Below, piece after piece: positions 37,747-63,424 of a stretch of DNA of 64,000 nt; within the stretch, counting starts at the first letter, position 1; each line of letters starts with the position of its first letter. The stretch covers positions 91,224-155,223 of IMG/VR virus record IMGVR_UViG_3300020057_000029. The stretch is one strand, 5' to 3'. A program made the position numbers and the translations under genes. Origin of the DNA: a virus. The notes under the pieces are model-generated. The model made no database searches. It had not been told where the DNA came from and saw only the letters and a list, made by a program, of their open reading frames with translations.

Positions 37747-38880
37747 ATGTCTTTCGGCAACTCCTTTCTTAAAAAAGCGTTAGGCGAAGATTTTTTTGAA
37801 TCTTTGCAAAAAGTTGAGCTTTATAAGCAAGGCACTCGCACGACCGTAGATCCAGAGGAAATTGCCACGGCCCTTCAGATTGTACCAAGAACCTTGATGG
37901 CGTTTTTGGTGAACACTCTTTCTCCTTTAAAGGTAGGAGACAACAAAAGAATTCAGCTCCCTCTTCAAGAATCTGGCGTATTCCTCAATGCCACCAAGCT
38001 GGAGCGCGACGTTTATATTGGCAATATTGAGCAAGCCGGTAAGATTGTGACTGAGTATAAATTCAGATCCATTCCAGGGATTGGACTTATTATCATGTCA
38101 GCTTACGAGCTCTATGATATTAATAAGTTGATAGAGCCTCCAAAAGTGGAGGAAGACGTTGCCTCCAAAGTGCAACATATGATCAATGAACGTCTTGCTA
38201 TACATGATATAGTTGGTCAGGTGGTCGATAAGACTATGGCTGAACGTGAAGCGCTAAACAAGCTCATGCTCATGAAACTGACCAATGAGCTCAATGCTAC
38301 TAGGGAAGAATTAGAACGTGAAAGAGTAAGGCTTGCTGGCTGTGCCGTTGCTGCTCATGGTGGTGTAAAGCCTGGAGAACTCCAACCTGGTGACTACGGA
38401 CACTCTGCATCTTTGGACGATGTTCTACATCTTCGTGAAAAAAACGAGAAGTTTAAAAAAGACATTGCTAACGTGGCCAGAGTTTTTTCGGAAGATCCTG
38501 CTTCTAAAAGCGATGAGTATTTACGCGGCTTGGCCAACGGAATTGCTGTTGTTGATGCTACCATAAATGATAAGGAACCAGAATTCGTGGATGCACCCAA
38601 AAAAGGCTCTCAAAAACTAAAAAACTTTGTAGAGCGCCGAAAACAGCCTCAAGAATTTTCTATTCAAATGGCCAAAGGTGAGCAAGTTGATTGCCCTGAT
38701 TGTGGCAAAAACATCTTTGATGGCACTGTATTTTCTGGCTGTATTTGCTTTGGCGATGATCGCGAGCGCAAGGTTTTTGTTAGGAAAAGTGATACCGGAA
38801 TCAATGTGCGTTTCTCTAAAGGCTTTGATCCTGAAAATATCGAAATGCTTCTAGATATTCTTAGGAGAAAACATGGATAA
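37747..38880 (+). CDS. hypothetical protein with coiled coil and C-terminal Zn ribbon
   Basis: CPDCG...CIC; LKKA, MAKG. Confidence 0.7.
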   Translation: MSFGNSFLKKALGEDFFESLQKVELYKQGTRTTVDPEEIATALQIVPRTLMAFLVNTLSPLKVGDNKRIQLPLQESGVFLNATKLERDVYIGNIEQAGKIVTEYKFRSIPGIGLIIMSAYELYDINKLIEPPKVEEDVASKVQHMINERLAIHDIVGQVVDKTMAEREALNKLMLMKLTNELNATREELERERVRLAGCAVAAHGGVKPGELQPGDYGHSASLDDVLHLREKNEKFKKDIANVARVFSEDPASKSDEYLRGLANGIAVVDATINDKEPEFVDAPKKGSQKLKNFVERRKQPQEFSIQMAKGEQVDCPDCGKNIFDGTVFSGCICFGDDRERKVFVRKSDTGINVRFSKGFDPENIEMLLDILRRKHG

Positions 38881-40549
38881 TATATTTTTAGCAATGGACG
38901 CAGATAACGCAGGAAGAATGGTCGGAAGAGCCGTTCTTGCTAACGATGTTGCTGCTCTTACCGAAGTAAGCTCCAGAATCGATCTGGGACAAGAAATCAT
39001 CGCCAGGTGGGTTCAAGAACAGGGCGGAAAAAAGATTTCTGCTGGAGGAGATGAGTTCACAGCCCAGATGCCGCCTGGTTCTATTGAAACGATTGAAGAA
39101 CTTCGGAAGGACTATCAATTTGCTACGAATCTAACAATGACCGTTGGCGTAGGCAAAGATTTGTCCCAAGCTGGCAAGTCTCTTATGGCCGGAAAACTAC
39201 GTGGTAAAAATATCGTAGTGATATTCGATGAAACCGTTGATTCTGAATTGCAGTCCGCACATCTACATGCTGGAGACGGAACTGGATCGGAAGAAGAAAA
39301 CAAGCTAGACGAAGCGTATCTTAGCGATGGTCAACAAAACGAGCAGGGAGAGGACGCCGCCAATGATGGTCAGGGCGAATTCTCTGATGGTAAAAATCAT
39401 GATAGCGAAGCCAATCGTGAGGCAAAGGGCGATGATGTTGGGCCTGGTTCTACTGAAGAAAGCCCAGGAGAGGGCGTTGAGCCTACCGCTACAGATCAAC
39501 AAGCTGAACAAAATGATCAACAAGCACAATTTAACACAGATGGTGAAGAGCCTGGTCCAACCGACCCAAAAGCTCAATCCAATCCCAAAACCGAAGGTGC
39601 GGAAAAGCTAGAGGAAAAATCTATGAACGATAAATCTAACGGAAACAGTGTAAAACCAAAAAACAAGGAGATCGTAAATGAAGGCTCTAAAGAAAAAGAT
39701 CCAAAAGCAGGTCAAGAAAATGTTGACAAGCTTAAAGAAAAAATTGATGAAGCCAGCCCCGAAAGCCAAAGCCAAGAAAAAGATGTAATGGAAAATATTG
39801 ACGATGCAGATCTTGCAACTGGCCATGCCGATGGAAAAGGGGTGGATGACAAAGACTCCGACCAAACTCCTGGTGACATGGGCCTAGGCGATGAAGCAGA
39901 AGCTGGGGCTGAAGAAGGTGTTGATCCTCAAGATCCTAGTGCTTCTGAAGAAGAAGGCGAAGAAGATCTTAATCCAGATCAGCTTCCTGGCGAAGACAAA
40001 GAAGACCCTGACTACAAAGAAGTTCTTGGTGACGCGATTGCCTCTGAACAAGAAAACATTCAAAAAGAAAAAGTCGTACAGATGGTAGCTGAAGCCCTAG
40101 AAGTCTTCAAAAGTCAGCGCCATATTTTGGAACGAGCTAAAGAACAAGCCCCTGAGCTCTATAACGGCTCGATCAAAATGCTTCGCGCAATGATTGAAAT
40201 GTCAAAATTGCTTGGTTTTGGCGATGGGCTAGAAGATCCTGAACACGATGCTCAGCAAAATGGCGCTGACTCCCTGTTTGGCAATGACGAAGACATGCCT
40301 GCCGATGACGAAGATATGCTTGCCGATGACGAAGATATGCTTGCCGATGACAAACCTTTCTTGGATGGTTCTGATTCTGAAGAAGGTGCGGAAGATAAAG
40401 AGAAGCCTGCTAGCAAACCTGAATTTCCTCCTAAGAAAGATGGTAAATCTGCTAAACCCGACGTTTCACCAGACGCTAAAGGAAAACCTAGTTTCCCCCC
40501 TAAAAAACCAGAAGGAAAACCTGCTGGAAAAAAGCCAGCGGGGCAATAG
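38873..40549 (+). CDS. mCpol (minimal Cas10/GGDD-type) nucleotide cyclase domain protein with long acidic tail
   Basis: FLAMDADNAG, ND, ISAGGDEF, TVGVG, AGKLRGKN within the first ~118 aa. Confidence 0.75.
   Translation: MDNIFLAMDADNAGRMVGRAVLANDVAALTEVSSRIDLGQEIIARWVQEQGGKKISAGGDEFTAQMPPGSIETIEELRKDYQFATNLTMTVGVGKDLSQAGKSLMAGKLRGKNIVVIFDETVDSELQSAHLHAGDGTGSEEENKLDEAYLSDGQQNEQGEDAANDGQGEFSDGKNHDSEANREAKGDDVGPGSTEESPGEGVEPTATDQQAEQNDQQAQFNTDGEEPGPTDPKAQSNPKTEGAEKLEEKSMNDKSNGNSVKPKNKEIVNEGSKEKDPKAGQENVDKLKEKIDEASPESQSQEKDVMENIDDADLATGHADGKGVDDKDSDQTPGDMGLGDEAEAGAEEGVDPQDPSASEEEGEEDLNPDQLPGEDKEDPDYKEVLGDAIASEQENIQKEKVVQMVAEALEVFKSQRHILERAKEQAPELYNGSIKMLRAMIEMSKLLGFGDGLEDPEHDAQQNGADSLFGNDEDMPADDEDMLADDEDMLADDKPFLDGSDSEEGAEDKEKPASKPEFPPKKDGKSAKPDVSPDAKGKPSFPPKKPEGKPAGKKPAGQ
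40284..40351 (+). repeat. 21-bp coding tandem repeat x3 (DDEDM[PL]A)
   Basis: gatgacgaagatatgcttgcc units. Confidence 0.85.
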
Positions 40550-40562
40550 GTAGCCCCATTGG
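40513..40562 (+). other. programmed -1 ribosomal frameshift signal
   Basis: AGGA SD-like, in-phase A_AAA_AAG at 40528-40534, stem GGGGC/GCCCC 5 nt downstream; -1 frame open to 40761. Confidence 0.72.
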
Positions 40563-40744
40563 AAAACTACCGACCAAGCAAACCACCTCTCACGTAGCGC
40601 GTGAAACGTTGCCACCTGGAGCGATTAACGCTAAAGGGCAGCAAAAGGTTATCGACCCTGTTACTGGTAAAACCAGATTTATAGACAGGAAAGCCGGTGT
40701 AGTAATGAGTTCCACCGGAGTCCCTGTAAAATCGGGAGGCGTGA

Positions 40745-41497
40745 ATGGCTCTCAAAATTAACTTAGATCTTGATAAGATAGCGGATCATTTCAAGGAGCT
40801 AGCCTACGAAGTAAAACAAGATTTAGAAAAAGGCGTTGGCAGCTTAGCTGCAATGACCCATGCTAGAGTTGCTGAGATAGCCAGTAGCGAATTGAATTCT
40901 TCTAGAAAAGAGTTTCAAGAATCTCTTGGTTTTGAAGAGATATCTCCTGGCGTTTGGGTTGTAAGCGTAGATGAAAAAGGTCTATGGGTAGAAGAAGGTA
41001 TTAAGCCTAATACGGATATGAAGGAAGGCCTTCTACGAGAAGGCGCAAAAACATCGAAGGATGGCTATAAGTACAAGTCGATTCCTTTTGATCACGGCAA
41101 AGCTCCTTCGCAGATGACACCCTATGCTAAAACGCTAGTAAGTCAGATCCGATATGTTTTAAAAAAAGAAGGTATTTCTTTTAAGAAGATTGAGAATGGT
41201 CCTAATGGGAATCCTAGGCTTGGTAAATTACACAAGCTAGACATTGATTCTATGCCACCAACCTCTCGGGCAAACACTGGAGCTCTACAGGGCCTAACGA
41301 TCTATCAAAGCAAAAATGCGGCTGGCAATGTTAGACGAGACATAATGACTTTTAGAACGGTTAGTGACGGTCCTAAGGGTCAAGGTAAATGGATTCACCC
41401 TGGAATGCAGGCTAAGAAGTTTTTAGACAGAGCAGCAGAATGGGCTTTAAAAGAATGGGAAGAAAAAATTCTTCCAGAGATATTAAAGAAATATTAA
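40745..41497 (+). CDS. neck/tail completion protein (HK97 gp10-like)
   Basis: MTFRTVSD...WIHPG motif; position. Confidence 0.65.
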   Translation: MALKINLDLDKIADHFKELAYEVKQDLEKGVGSLAAMTHARVAEIASSELNSSRKEFQESLGFEEISPGVWVVSVDEKGLWVEEGIKPNTDMKEGLLREGAKTSKDGYKYKSIPFDHGKAPSQMTPYAKTLVSQIRYVLKKEGISFKKIENGPNGNPRLGKLHKLDIDSMPPTSRANTGALQGLTIYQSKNAAGNVRRDIMTFRTVSDGPKGQGKWIHPGMQAKKFLDRAAEWALKEWEEKILPEILKKY

Positions 41498-43404: not shown

Positions 43405-45561
43405 ATGGCTCAAAGATTAGTAACTAGTTTCGTAAATACAAATGTACCTGGCGCTTACCCCAATCAAAGCGTTATTAGCAAGCCAGTAGGCTTTGCTTCT
43501 TCTGGTAACATCGTTATCATTGGAGAAGCTGATGGTGGTGACAACTTCGCTAACGTGGATCTGAAGAAGAATTTCTTTGGTCCTAGTCAAGCGGCAAAAG
43601 TTGCCCAACAGTACATCCGTGGATCTCTTGTAGACGCCATGAATGCACTTGCTGGACCTTCTGCTGATCCAGAAATTGTTGGATCTGCAAATCGTATTTA
43701 TATCTTAAAAACCAACTCTGGAAGCCAGGCTTCTGCCTTGGTTGATACCGATTATGGCACACTGAAGGATAAAAACTGGGGCTTGGATGGTAATAAATAC
43801 AATTTCAAAGTAACCCAAGTGGCAGCAGAGGCCGCTCCAGAAATTTCTGGTATTACAATCGTTACTTTTGGAGCCACCTTGAACGGTGCTTCTTTCAGTC
43901 TCCGCCAAAATGGTGGTGCTGCTGTTGTAATTGCTCTTAGCGGAATCGCTGGTGACCATGCGGACCAGGCCACTTTGATCATTGAACTTAACAGTTTGCT
44001 TCCTATTGGTGTCACTGCCTCTGCTGGCGCTGCTATTAATAGTATCAAGCTTGCTATGGCCGTAGATGCTGCTGCTAACCGTAAGGGTTGGGCTAAATCT
44101 CTTGAGCTTATCGATTCCACCCCAGGCGATCTCGCTGCTCTTGGACACGATGAAAACTTAATCGTTTCCGCTCAAGAAGCTGAAATTGAACTTTCCATTG
44201 CTCGCGCCGATACGAATCTAAGCGAAGTATGGGATATCGATGCTGAAGTTGCCTTTCAAATTGGATATCTTGGCACAACCGCTACTATGACCATAAATCA
44301 ATCGGCTAAGACCCTAACCACTACCGTAACAGGTGGTGCTGGTAGTAACTTGAGCTTAAGTCTGGCGAACTTTGCAACCCTTGGAAATTTGTCTGCTTTC
44401 ATTGCTACTCAACCTGGATACTCTGCTGCTATTCCGGCTGCATCATTGCAATTGGCACCTTCTTCCTTGGACGCTGTTACTGCAATCGGTATCGGCGCAA
44501 GTGTTGCTGGTGACATGCCTGGACGTGTAAAACGCGGTCTCTATGATTTCAAAGTATCTGTTGGTCAATCTCGCGCTCTTGCTTTTACTGCAATTGCCCA
44601 AGCTGGCCTGCCTGATGCTTCTGCTACCGCCTACTTAGCAGGTGGTCTAAAGGGCGCAACTACGGCTGCTCAAGTTGCCGCTGCTATCGCAAAGCTTTCT
44701 GGTCTATCTGTGAACATTATTGTTCCCCTGTTTTCCCGCGACGCTAGTGCCGATATCGCTGACGCTTTAACTGACAGTGCTTCAACCTATACAATTGATG
44801 CTATTCACGCTCTTGTGAAAACTCATTGCTTGACCTATTCAACCCCTAAACTTAAGAAACATCGCTCTGCAGTGCTTTCTTTCTGGGGCACCTTTGCTCA
44901 GGCCCAACAAAAAGCTCAACAGTTGGCCCAATACCGTTGTGCCATGACCATGCAACGTGCTACTCAAGTTAGCTCTACTACAAACCAAAGTGAAGTTTTC
45001 TTGCCCTGGATGAATGCGGTAATCGCAGCTGGAATGCAAGCTGGTGGTTTTTATAAAGCTATTGTCAATAAGCTTGCTAACGTGATTAGCTTTGAAGATC
45101 CTGCTGGATTTGATTCTGGTGACCCAGACGATAACAGCACTGCACTCGACGCTGGCCTGATGTTCTTGACTCAAGAAGACAATGATGGCCCTCGTTGGGT
45201 TTCTGACCAAACCACCTATGGTTTTGATACGAACTTTGTATACAACAGCTTCCAAGCGGTATACTTGTCCGATTCTCTAACCTTAGACCTTGCCTCTAGC
45301 TTTCAAAAAGCTTTTACTGGCAAAAACGTAGCAGATATCGATGCAGGTGCCGCTCGCGGATTCTTGCACCAGAAGATGGCTGAATACAAGCGTCTAAAAA
45401 TGATTGCTTCCAGTGTTGATGCTCCCTTGGGCTTCAAAAACGAAAATGTTGTAGTTGCCCCCCCAGAACTCGATATCGCTGTTGAAGTAAAACTCGCTAC
45501 TGCGATTTACTTTATACCAATTGATGTGAGTTTCTCGCAAGTAATTCAGACATCGGCTTAA
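43405..45561 (+). CDS. contractile tail sheath protein
   Basis: PGAY, IIGEADGG, NWG, DQTTY, FIPI; 718 aa; AGGAG RBS. Confidence 0.9.
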   Translation: MAQRLVTSFVNTNVPGAYPNQSVISKPVGFASSGNIVIIGEADGGDNFANVDLKKNFFGPSQAAKVAQQYIRGSLVDAMNALAGPSADPEIVGSANRIYILKTNSGSQASALVDTDYGTLKDKNWGLDGNKYNFKVTQVAAEAAPEISGITIVTFGATLNGASFSLRQNGGAAVVIALSGIAGDHADQATLIIELNSLLPIGVTASAGAAINSIKLAMAVDAAANRKGWAKSLELIDSTPGDLAALGHDENLIVSAQEAEIELSIARADTNLSEVWDIDAEVAFQIGYLGTTATMTINQSAKTLTTTVTGGAGSNLSLSLANFATLGNLSAFIATQPGYSAAIPAASLQLAPSSLDAVTAIGIGASVAGDMPGRVKRGLYDFKVSVGQSRALAFTAIAQAGLPDASATAYLAGGLKGATTAAQVAAAIAKLSGLSVNIIVPLFSRDASADIADALTDSASTYTIDAIHALVKTHCLTYSTPKLKKHRSAVLSFWGTFAQAQQKAQQLAQYRCAMTMQRATQVSSTTNQSEVFLPWMNAVIAAGMQAGGFYKAIVNKLANVISFEDPAGFDSGDPDDNSTALDAGLMFLTQEDNDGPRWVSDQTTYGFDTNFVYNSFQAVYLSDSLTLDLASSFQKAFTGKNVADIDAGAARGFLHQKMAEYKRLKMIASSVDAPLGFKNENVVVAPPELDIAVEVKLATAIYFIPIDVSFSQVIQTSA

Positions 45562-52697: not shown

Positions 52698-52991
52698 TCA
52701 TCCTTTTCTCAGCACAAAACCAGCTTCTTCAGCTTCTTTTTTAGCAAGAACTGTGCCGCCGCGTTCGCCTTCAAGGGCTGTACGTTTATAGTCGATATGC
52801 TTGAAATACACAAAGCCGCCCTTTGGCACCTCGATCTTATACACAACACTAGTTTCAGGATCTTGGAACATTGCTCCAACACCTAAGGCTTGCATTGCAG
52901 CCTCAAGATGTTCACGCACAGTGTTAGTTTCTTTCTGCTTTGCTTCCAAATCTTTGGCTAGAGTCAAAAATGTCTGTTGTTCATTGGTCAT
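52698..52991 (-). CDS. hypothetical protein
   Basis: ORF coupling. Confidence 0.7.
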   Translation of the reverse strand: MTNEQQTFLTLAKDLEAKQKETNTVREHLEAAMQALGVGAMFQDPETSVVYKIEVPKGGFVYFKHIDYKRTALEGERGGTVLAKKEAEEAGFVLRKG

Positions 52992-53242
52992 TAGCTTACC
53001 CTCTGTTTTTTTCTGCTGTTATATGAAAATAAAAACTTCCTAAACACCCCAAAATGTAAGGTGTCGTGATCAGTATTCTCAGGCTTGCACATCTCAGCAA
53101 CTGCCTGATCAAGCTGAGTAGCGTCGAATTTGAATTCCTGTAAACAAATCTTTATCACATTTTTGAAGCTACCATGGAATACCGCTTTAACGCCTACCAC
53201 CAAGGTCCATTCACCATTATCGCTATTGATCAATTCGTACAT
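52991..53242 (-). CDS. hypothetical protein
   Basis: GGAG RBS, promoter upstream. Confidence 0.7.
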   Translation of the reverse strand: MYELINSDNGEWTLVVGVKAVFHGSFKNVIKICLQEFKFDATQLDQAVAEMCKPENTDHDTLHFGVFRKFLFSYNSRKKQRVS

Positions 53243-55975: not shown

Positions 55976-56503
55976 TTAAATTTTTTTATCGGCCAAAATA
56001 GTATCAGTCAGGATTGCCCCAGTCAGGTCAGCCCCAGTCAGGTTTGCCCTAATCAGGTTTGCCCCAAACAGGTTTGCCTTGGTCAGGTCAACCCAAGTCA
56101 GGTTTGCCTCGAACAGGTCAGCCTGAGACAGGTCAGCCTGAAACAGGTTTACCCAATACAGGTTTGCCCTAGTCAGGTTTGCCTTAGACAGGTCAACCCC
56201 AGACAGGTTTACCCAATACAGGATTGCCCCAAACAGGTTTGCCCCAGACAGGTTTGCTCCAGACAGGTTTGCTCCAGACAGGTTTGCTCCGCGTAGGTTT
56301 GCCACAATCAGGTTTGCCCTGAACAGGTCAGCCCCAATCAGGTCAGCCCTAGTCAGGTTTGCCCCAGACAGGCTTGCCCCAGACAGGTCAGCCCCAGACA
56401 GGTCAGCCCCAATCAGGTCAGCCTTTTCCCCACCTTCTTCACCTTTTAAAAACATAACATGTAGTTTAAGGATATTATCTAAAATTTGCTTATCCATATT
56501 CAT
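55976..56503 (-). CDS. pentapeptide repeat protein
   Basis: A[DN]LXX repeats. Confidence 0.92.
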   Translation of the reverse strand: MNMDKQILDNILKLHVMFLKGEEGGEKADLIGADLSGADLSGASLSGANLTRADLIGADLFRANLIVANLRGANLSGANLSGANLSGANLFGAILYWVNLSGVDLSKANLTRANLYWVNLFQADLSQADLFEANLTWVDLTKANLFGANLIRANLTGADLTGAILTDTILADKKI

Positions 56504-56506
56504 CTC

Positions 56507-57094
56507 TTAAATTTTCTTATCGGCTAAAATAGTACTAGTCAGGTCAACCCTAGTCAGGTCAACCCCAGACAGGTCAGCCCCAGAAAGGTTTGCCCCAGAC
56601 AGGAAAGCCCCAGAAAGGTTTGCTAAAGTCAGGTCAGCCCCAGACAGGTTTGCCCCGCGAAGGTCAGCCCCAGTCAGGTTTGCCCCGGTCAGGTTTGCCC
56701 CGTAAAGGTCAGCCCAAGCCAGGTTTGCCTGAGACAGGTTTGCCAAAGCCAGGAAGGCCCCAGACAGGACAGTCCTGAACAGGTCAGCCTTAGTCAGGTT
56801 TGCCTCAGACAGGTCAGCCCCAGACAGGTAGGCCCCAGACAGGTTTGCCCCAGACAGGTCAACCCCAGACAGGAAAGTCCTAATCAGGTTTGCCCCGCGA
56901 AGGTTTGCCCTGTAAAGGCTTGCCCCGTAAAGGTTTGCCCTAGACAGGTTTGCTAAAGACAGGTTTGCTAAAGACAGGTTTGCCAAAGACAGGTTTGCCC
57001 CAGACAGGTTTGCCCTTTCCCCACCTTCTTCACCTTTTAAAAACATAGCATGTAGCTTAAGGATGTTATCTAAAATTTGCTTTTCCATATTCAT
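56507..57094 (-). CDS. pentapeptide repeat protein
   Basis: A[DN]LXX repeats. Confidence 0.92.
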   Translation of the reverse strand: MNMEKQILDNILKLHAMFLKGEEGGERANLSGANLSLANLSLANLSLANLSRANLYGASLYRANLRGANLIRTFLSGVDLSGANLSGAYLSGADLSEANLTKADLFRTVLSGAFLALANLSQANLAWADLYGANLTGANLTGADLRGANLSGADLTLANLSGAFLSGANLSGADLSGVDLTRVDLTSTILADKKI

Positions 57095-57107: not shown

Positions 57108-57356
57108 TTATCGGCCAAAAATAGTATCAGTCAGGTTTGCCCCAGTCAGGTCAACCCCAGACAGGTCAGCCTTAGACAGGTTTGCCCAAGCCAGGTTTGC
57201 CCCAGCCAGGTAAGCCCCAGAAAGGTTTGCTAAAGTCAGGTCAGCCCCAGTCAGGTCAACCCCAGACAGGTTTGCCCTTTCCCCACTTTCTCCACCTTTT
57301 AAAAATATAGCGTGTAGTTTAAGGATGTTATCTAAAATTTGCTTTTCCATAGTCAC
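57108..57356 (-). CDS. short pentapeptide repeat protein
   Basis: Same N-cap; tail shifted relative to the ILADKKI end of paralogues. Confidence 0.85.
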
Positions 57357-62905: not shown

Positions 62906-63424
62906 TTATTCGATCTTAGCCTTATCGGCCAAAATAGTACCAGACAGGCTTGCCCCAGACAGGTCAGCCTTAGACAGGCTTGCCCCAGACAGGTCAGCCC
63001 AAGACAGGTTTGCTTTGGTCAGGTCAGCCCTGGTCAGGTCAGACCCGTAAAGGCTTGCCCTAGAAAGGTCAGCCCTAGTCAGGTCAGCCCCGTAAAGGCT
63101 TGCCCTAGAAAGGTCAACCCCAGACAGGTCAGCCTCAGACAGGTCAGCCTCAGACAGGTCAGCCCCAGTCAGGTTTGCCTTAGACAGGTTTGCCCCGAAC
63201 AGGCTTGCCCCAGTCAGGAAAGCCCCGAACAGGCTTGCCCCGAACAGGTTTGCCCCAGTCAGGTTTGCCCTAGTCAGGTCAGCCTCAGACAGGTTTGCCC
63301 CACGAAGGTCAGCCTCAGACAGGTTTGCCTCAGTCAGGTTTGCCCTTTCCCCAGCCTTTTCATCTTTTAAAAATATAGCATGCAGCTTAAGGATGTTATC
63401 TAAAATTTGCTTTTCCATATTCAC
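62906..63424 (-). CDS. pentapeptide repeat protein
   Basis: Same N-cap [13 protein letters not shown]; A[DN]LXX repeats. Confidence 0.92.
   Translation of the reverse strand: MNMEKQILDNILKLHAIFLKDEKAGERANLTEANLSEADLRGANLSEADLTRANLTGANLFGASLFGAFLTGASLFGANLSKANLTGADLSEADLSEADLSGVDLSRASLYGADLTRADLSRASLYGSDLTRADLTKANLSWADLSGASLSKADLSGASLSGTILADKAKIE

Follow-up and report, generated by a model that had tools for sequence, protein, structure and literature searches.

The gene for a nucleotide cyclase of the mCpol type in a phage represented in metagenomic data very probably carries a programmed −1 ribosomal frameshift near its 3′ end, which would yield two proteins, of 558 and 629 amino acids (aa), that differ at their C-termini. 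The gene lies on the plus strand of a 64,000-nucleotide stretch (the window), the final 64 kb of the 155-kb IMG/VR record IMGVR_UViG_3300020057_000029 (completeness rating 96%). A first-pass annotation of the window had proposed that a slip of the type known from bacterial dnaX adds a hidden 75-residue domain to the mCpol protein. Homology of the added peptide, conservation of the slippery heptamer, hairpins predicted just downstream and purifying selection on the −1 open reading frame (ORF) together argue that the domain is real and is reached by frameshifting.

The slip site and the −1 frame

The heptamer A_AAA_AAG spans positions 40528–40534 on the plus strand and is in phase with the mCpol ORF, as had been claimed. 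Codons counted back from the TAG stop (40547–40549), at which the short isoform would end, place AAA 40529–40531 in the P site and AAG 40532–40534 in the A site, with A40528 before them. The stop, originally put four codons away, is separated from the heptamer by five sense codons when the A-site codon is included (AAG, CCA, GCG, GGG, CAA). From 40504 to 40758 the −1 frame is free of stops; it ends at TAA 40759–40761 and overlaps the next gene (ATG 40745) by 17 nt; these features were described correctly, and translation from 40534 agrees with the 75-residue peptide originally reported. The extension (40534–40761, plus strand) consists of 75 codons and the TAA and encodes a basic peptide with an isoelectric point (pI) of 10.7. 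Joined to residues 1–554 of the 0-frame product, it would give a long isoform of 629 aa and 67.0 kDa.

By itself, an in-phase A_AAA_AAG is not rare, occurring about 12 times in the 155-kb genome. The broader motif X_XXA_AAR is found in phase 86 times per 45,010 codons genome-wide, and the chance of meeting it inside the 14-codon overlap of the two frames in the window is about 0.017. Such a coincidence would have to be repeated in every −1 relative, since each has a heptamer in its own overlap.

The tail as a conserved C-terminal domain

Judged by homology, the −1 peptide is the normal C-terminus of a family of mCpol proteins from viruses resembling Myxococcus phage Mx1. A word-index search with the 75 residues finds four short called genes at 70–82% identity, each located between an mCpol gene and a gene for a 250-aa protein. 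Among longer proteins, sixteen contain the peptide: thirteen are PF18182-annotated homologues spanning 466–651 aa, with the peptide in frame at the C-terminus, and the other three are fragments of 137–321 aa. A profile search run exhaustively over 1.84 billion representatives returns 48 matches: 17 are long proteins that end in the domain, 27 are short ORFs of 36–153 aa and 4 are doubtful. The family C-terminal sequence reads ...IGQPIGKLPSKATxHVARTPLPPGAINAKGQQKVIDPKTGKTRFIDRKxGMVQSPTGVPVKPP. The shifted product aligns without gaps to in-frame homologues across the junction, KK followed by ASGAIGSPIGKL being matched by KKSEGAVGQSIGKL; in a longer alignment, ...KPAGKK followed by ASGAIGSPIGKLP of the window is matched by ...PAEKKSEGAVGQSIGKLP of locus L026, where the domain is in frame.

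Substitution patterns point to a translated tail. Between the window and its relative L005, the proportions of nonsynonymous and synonymous differences in the tail are pN 0.10 and pS 0.71, and the ratio of nonsynonymous to synonymous substitution rates (dN/dS) in pairs of −1 loci is 0.05–0.18, the same range as in pairs of in-frame loci; no conserved ORF lies on the opposite strand of the tail region. By these measures the tail domain of the split genes, with dN/dS near 0.05, is under strong purifying selection. If a true frameshift mutation had removed the C-terminal domain, the −1 ORF would be a decaying, untranslated remnant, and the truncated 0-frame product would keep its mCpol and helical domains; but dN/dS values this low, with synonymous sites near saturation, effectively refute such decay, and the −1 frame is open in all ~21 distinct loci.

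The tail has no conserved start codon of its own. The codon at the I/L position of IGKL is ATT, TTG, ATA or TTA across four clade members, and the in-frame TTG at 40609 is TTA in L055, whose gene caller called nothing in the 195-nt “gap”. The earlier statement that the −1 frame lacks a usable start holds insofar as conservation begins well upstream and the starts are not conserved, and needs a small correction insofar as the TTG exists. The tail ORF could instead be translated alone, from a non-AUG start or by termination-reinitiation after the mCpol stop, to give a free basic peptide of ~55–70 aa. Gene callers often do call the tail as a separate gene of 44–96 aa, and the window offers both this TTG and an in-frame ATT (40558) preceded at 6 nt by AGG. 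Such independent translation is nevertheless unlikely: the candidate starts vary even among the closest relatives, amino-acid conservation extends back to the heptamer, and a separate start would leave the slip site in the overlap of every −1 locus unexplained. Two proteins, P0025 and P0044, were considered as a fourth layout in which the domain has its own ATG or GTG at its boundary, and this was rejected. Their −1 ORFs are open back to in-phase heptamers, C_CCA_AAA and A_AAA_AAG, so the start is a choice of the gene caller.

The starts that gene callers give to the tail ORF are arbitrary ATG, GTG or TTG codons, and in databases the tail is scattered over dozens of unrelated-looking “hypothetical proteins” of 36–96 aa (P0002–P0005, P0022–P0066) or is not called (L055). 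If the frameshift operates as proposed, every gene caller has missed the true full-length product of 629 aa, its tail being either absent or annotated as a “hypothetical protein” of 44–96 aa.

The tail has 10 K+R against 3 D+E, on an otherwise acidic protein. Its AlphaFold2 (AF2) model, built from 43 sequences, has a predicted local distance difference test (pLDDT) score of 76 and four short strands. Fold searches with this model give no Foldseek match at E <1 and no VIA-align match at Z >=2, a search of the ESM Atlas for the tail yields nothing usable, and mCpol is the sole domain that Pfam finds on the in-frame homologues. A weak resemblance of the tail to the arm-binding domain of lambda Int was discounted and is not used as evidence. 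The first-pass annotation had suggested that the tail is perhaps a packaging or anchoring tag. Since the gene sits among late head/neck genes, upstream of the sheath gene (43405–45561) and the tube genes, it is a reasonable guess that the tail would tether the cyclase, either to some part of the virion or to nucleic acid.

Slip sites and frame layouts across relatives

Relatives of the gene were gathered as ~60 loci from two alignment-driven IMG/VR scans, one metagenome scan and exact look-ups. Alignment queries were what brought them in: blastn and tblastn searches of the gene and tail against 50,697 phage records give no match, nor do single-protein scans of IMG/VR. The layout was assigned in 38 IMG/VR loci, with a hidden Markov model (HMM) to place the domain and the open frame to place the upstream ORF. 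Fifteen of them encode the domain in frame, 17 have it in the −1 frame and 6 in the +1 frame. The sample is somewhat biased, since the first queries were split forms, and the unbiased profile search gives the same mix. A tree built from the mCpol and helical domains only implies at least 9 layout changes among 33 rows; it places L005 (−1) as sister of the window, and next to them come L039/L040 (in frame) and then L004 (−1).

The conservation of the heptamer and of the −1 ORF in homologues, proposed at the outset as a check, is borne out. In all 24 of the −1 loci (~21 distinct), the stretch that the two frames share contains an in-phase X_XXA_AAR. The window, L005, L055, L056, L042 and L061 have A_AAA_AAG, and the others have C_CCA_AAG or C_CCA_AAA. 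The overlaps can be as short as 5–9 codons; that of L005 is 19 nt, with a −1-frame TGA abutting the heptamer, and those of L042, L027, L049, L025, L020 and L029 are 16–28 nt. Upstream of the overlap, the same ORFs contain 10 such heptamers per 8,133 codons. The chance of a coincidental match is about 0.02 per −1 locus, with a range of 0.007–0.05, and three independent origins would give ~1e-5.

The first-pass annotation had held that homologues encoding the extension in frame would expose the break as a sequencing indel. Such homologues do exist (the 15 of 38), yet more than 20 independent contigs show the break, and a slip site accompanies it in every one. An assembly or sequencing error in the homopolymer, with a true in-frame gene (A7) and a single protein, is accordingly very improbable, even though about 40% of homologues are in frame and the break falls in a homopolymer. 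The exact 558-aa product is present on 4 contigs. L005, L055 and L056, which come from three other sequencing runs and differ from the window at pS ~0.7, share its phase, stop region, heptamer and hairpin with A7 rather than A6; distant −1 loci break at C_CCA_AAG, where there is no long homopolymer; and another A6 run in the same gene, 25 nt upstream (40502–40507), leaves the frame intact.

The variety of heptamers also bears on slippage of RNA polymerase, which by adding one A at the A6 run to some transcripts would put the long form in frame. Productive polymerase slippage generally needs longer runs, of about nine A or T. The window clade does have runs of A6–A7 at the site, and transcriptional slippage is documented as another way to reach such a result (PMC5009743). 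Most −1 relatives, however, have the same architecture with C_CCA_AAG, whose three A's are not expected to promote slippage, and the hairpin spacing in those relatives is typical of ribosomal stimulators; a transcriptional origin is therefore judged improbable.

Ribosomal frameshifting may operate in some in-frame relatives as well. Seven in-frame loci retain an in-phase heptamer (among them L026, L023, L019, L021, L039 and L040), and in two of these a −1-frame stop lies one codon past it: L026 (GAA AAA AAG TCT GAA; 2494–2510) and L023 (GCC CCA AAG TCT AAA; 2482–2496). This arrangement mirrors that of the window and suggests that in L026 and L023 frameshifting produces a form without the tail.

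Myxococcus phage Mx1 is the only cultured relative, and among cultured-phage records it is reached just through its sheath, which is 40% identical. Its homologue, WNM70340.1 (L054:3645–5051), has the tail in frame and keeps the helical block, while its mCpol-like domain is degenerate, with GGDEF lost (ASGGSPVLDLG), and is probably inactive.

Candidate stimulatory elements

Both flanking elements named in the first-pass annotation are present. An AAGGA resembling a Shine-Dalgarno (SD) sequence, which contains the AGGA originally noted 11 nt upstream of the heptamer, lies at 40512–40516 on the plus strand and is a possible, if weak, 5′ stimulator. AAGG(A) is found in L005 and L055, and across the family GGAGG-like runs lie 9–13 nt upstream of the heptamer in ~17 of 23 loci, being stronger in the more distant relatives than in the window clade.

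The GGGGC/GCCCC stem originally reported 5 nt downstream begins at that distance from the heptamer and forms the inner part (40540–40544 with 40553–40557) of a larger hairpin predicted by RNAfold at 40535–40562 on the plus strand, the outer part pairing CCAG 40535–40538 with UUGG 40559–40562. The predicted energy is −15.9 kcal/mol (z −2.5 against dinucleotide shuffles), and 1 of 200 shuffles is as good. The window, L005, L055 and L056, the four members of the clade, share an 18-nt segment of the hairpin, GGGGCAATAGGTAGCCCC, without a single difference, although synonymous sites elsewhere are ~70% different; the invariance of GGGGCAATAGGTAGCCCC indicates that the putative hairpin is under constraint.

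Of 23 distinct loci with a heptamer, 19 have a predicted hairpin that starts 5–9 nt past it. The mean z over the 23 loci is −2.4, compared with −0.6 in control windows 150–200 nt upstream. A sister clade, in which P-I/V-G-x-P-I-G is encoded by the hairpin, does show covariation: pairing holds in 63 of 63 cells, and two pairs have compensatory, synonymous changes at third codon positions (ATA/CCT, ATT/CCA and GTG/CCC at one; CCA/ATT and CCG/ATC at the other), a degree of covariation matched by none of 500 shuffles. An Rfam cmscan of 40400–40700 finds no frameshift element, just a chance match to HIV_FE on the opposite strand (16 bits vs 45, E 9.5).

A model for frameshifting at the mCpol gene

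These signals can be assembled into a conventional scheme. Ribosomes translating the mCpol gene would reach A_AAA_AAG with two Lys tRNAs on AAA-AAG and be made to pause by the hairpin, perhaps also by the weak SD-like AAGGA upstream. Some would slip back by one base, re-pairing on AAA-AAA, and resume with GCC at 40534. Unshifted ribosomes would stop at TAG 40547 and release the acidic 558-aa protein; shifted ribosomes would add 75 residues and release a 629-aa protein ending in the basic, β-rich domain that relatives encode in frame. Termination of the shifted ribosomes near the start of the next gene may couple the two and feed that start. Both A_AAA_AAG and C_CCA_AAG rank with the most shift-prone heptamers in E. 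coli (PMC5009743). The sequence signals, their conservation and the selection on the −1 ORF are observed; slippage itself, its efficiency and the use of both isoforms are inferred.

Several observations weigh against programmed frameshifting. The AAGGA of the window clade is weak and is lost in L056. The hairpin of this clade shows no variation and hence no covariation, and its z-score is modest; the minimum free energy is no better than that of shuffles in L005 (z −0.4) or in L029, L030 and L034 of another clade. Heptamers that end in AAG are much less slippery where a tRNA-Lys(CUU) is present, as it may be in the host. A phylogenetically independent test of whether a split gene goes with a slip motif has 3–6 pairs, none of them pointing the wrong way, too few for significance. 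Finally, five in-frame relatives have no slip motif at all; two isoforms are therefore not universal, and a single long form is enough in some phages.

+1 loci and a family-wide view

Loci with the domain in the +1 frame have a motif of their own. CC_CCA_CAG is found at the homologous site in all nine distinct +1 loci (L018:2490–2510, L022, L015, L041, L045, L052, L057:340–352, L058 and L059) and in the in-frame L036–38. The 0-frame stop comes at once or one codon after it in 7 of the 9; the stop is adjacent in L057 and six codons on in L045/L053. Since the +1-frame S-S-K-P is kept by different Ser codons (AGC AGT in L018, AGT TCA in L045), the +1 frame appears to be read from CC_CCA_CAG onward. 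An SD-like GGAGG lies ~13 nt upstream in most +1 loci, and several have hairpins downstream.

As a working hypothesis, CC_CCA_CAG would fit a tandem −2 slip, with CCA moving to CCC in the P site and CAG to CAC in the A site, so that positions 1 and 2 are kept; phage Mu and arteriviruses provide known cases of −2 shifting (PMC5009743). A +1 shift at the stop codon was also considered for this group and is less favoured than −2: the codon just before the 0-frame stop is variable, and the stop of L045 lies six codons past the motif.

More tentatively still, the site could be viewed as a conserved “recoding node” of the Mx1-like family of mCpol carriers, whose lineages would flip among an in-frame layout, in which the shift truncates, a −1 layout, in which it extends, and a +1 layout served by a −2 slip at CC_CCA_CAG. 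This picture is possible but less likely than not. Were it true, and were efficiency near 50%, layout flips would be nearly neutral and selection would act to keep proteins with and without the tail in a fixed ratio; bacteria would also gain, in CC_CCA_CAG, a new natural slippery sequence for −2 shifts. With one frameshift site present in dozens of natural variants and three layouts, the family is useful for comparing stimulators of a mechanism that is not itself new.

The mCpol gene and its neighbours

The 0-frame mCpol ORF (38873–40549, plus strand) encodes 558 aa (59.9 kDa, pI 4.2), with 136 D+E against 60 K+R. PF18182, the Pfam mCpol family, matches residues 5–118 at 37.5 bits (cut-off 26.4), and the catalytic motifs DADNAG and GGDEF (the latter at residues 58–62) are visible; by these marks the domain is a member of PF18182, with enzymatic activity that is only predicted. 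After the mCpol domain come a long stretch of acidic low-complexity sequence, a conserved helical block and an end rich in Lys and Pro. Many of the in-frame proteins P0006–P0021 have several zinc-finger-like CPxC/CPYC pairs in the middle region that separates the mCpol domain from the helical block; the same region of the window protein has none and is plain acidic low-complexity sequence instead. A 21-bp tandem repeat inside the gene (40284–40351; 3.2 copies, 95% match) encodes a repeated (A)DDEDML.

The next gene (40745–41497, plus strand) starts at ATG 40745 and has a predicted 250-aa product of phrog_16819 without assigned function; the local gene order is kept in all relatives. The phage carries no tRNA genes.

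Elsewhere in the window, the genome-wide heptamer count raised a second frameshift candidate on the minus strand (52991–53242), which was dismissed as merely an ATGA-coupled next gene. A set of paralogous small genes on the minus strand (55976–56503, 56507–57094, 57108–57350 and 62906–63418), which belong to a family of at least 11 copies in the 155-kb genome, at least 7 of them at other places, share a conserved N-terminus and a T_TTA_AAA at an equal offset (47 or 53 nt) from the start.

Comparison with known systems

A close parallel is E. coli dnaX, which makes tau and gamma: the heptamer is A_AAA_AAG, a stem-loop lies a few nucleotides downstream and an SD-like element ~10–13 nt upstream (PMC5009743), and one gene gives two proteins that differ at the C-terminus. 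The layout of L026 and L023, with a stop one codon past the shift, is exactly that of dnaX. In the window, by contrast, the shift would lengthen the protein, whereas the dnaX shift truncates it; the genes are unrelated, the window hairpin is short (5+4 bp), its SD-like element is weak, and it has no match among Rfam frameshift elements.

The frameshifts of lambda G/GT and other tail assembly chaperones likewise occur in a late phage gene, whose product gains a C-terminal domain when ribosomes slip by −1 close to the 3′ end; among related phages, the second chaperone frame is entered by −1, +1 or −2 shifts (PMC5009743). The window gene differs in its place among head/neck genes, ahead of the sheath gene, in beginning with an mCpol domain and in having many relatives in frame. 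Its identification as a tail assembly chaperone of the G/GT type was rejected on its position upstream of sheath and tube and on mCpol being the sole domain found. The lambda G/GT heptamer, G_GGA_AAG, is also unlike that of the window.

Insertion sequences of the IS3/IS911 type fuse two overlapping frames, orfA and orfB, at A_AAA_AAG, with an SD upstream and structure downstream; a review of such elements is PMC5009743. The window resembles them in the heptamer that joins two overlapping frames; the differences are that orfAB encodes the transposase of a mobile element, that both of its ORFs are long and that the downstream ORF is not known to occur in frame.

The enzyme itself is related to the mCpol (OptS) of the Panoptes system: the N-terminal 114 residues of the window protein match PF18182 above threshold, and GGDEF is kept. 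The bacterial mCpol is a small stand-alone enzyme encoded beside a 2TM-beta or CARF-TM effector (PMC12657230, PMC12657218), whereas that of the window heads a late phage protein of 558 or 629 aa without an effector. The papers found on mCpol contain no description of recoding in mCpol genes; the frameshift mechanism is ordinary, and its use is what has not been described for this gene family. Until now mCpol has been known as an enzyme of Panoptes, a guard system of bacteria; its phage counterpart would be made in two forms, the longer of which would end in a basic module borne by an acidic tether, an arrangement that bears on whether and how the enzyme attaches to a component of the virion.

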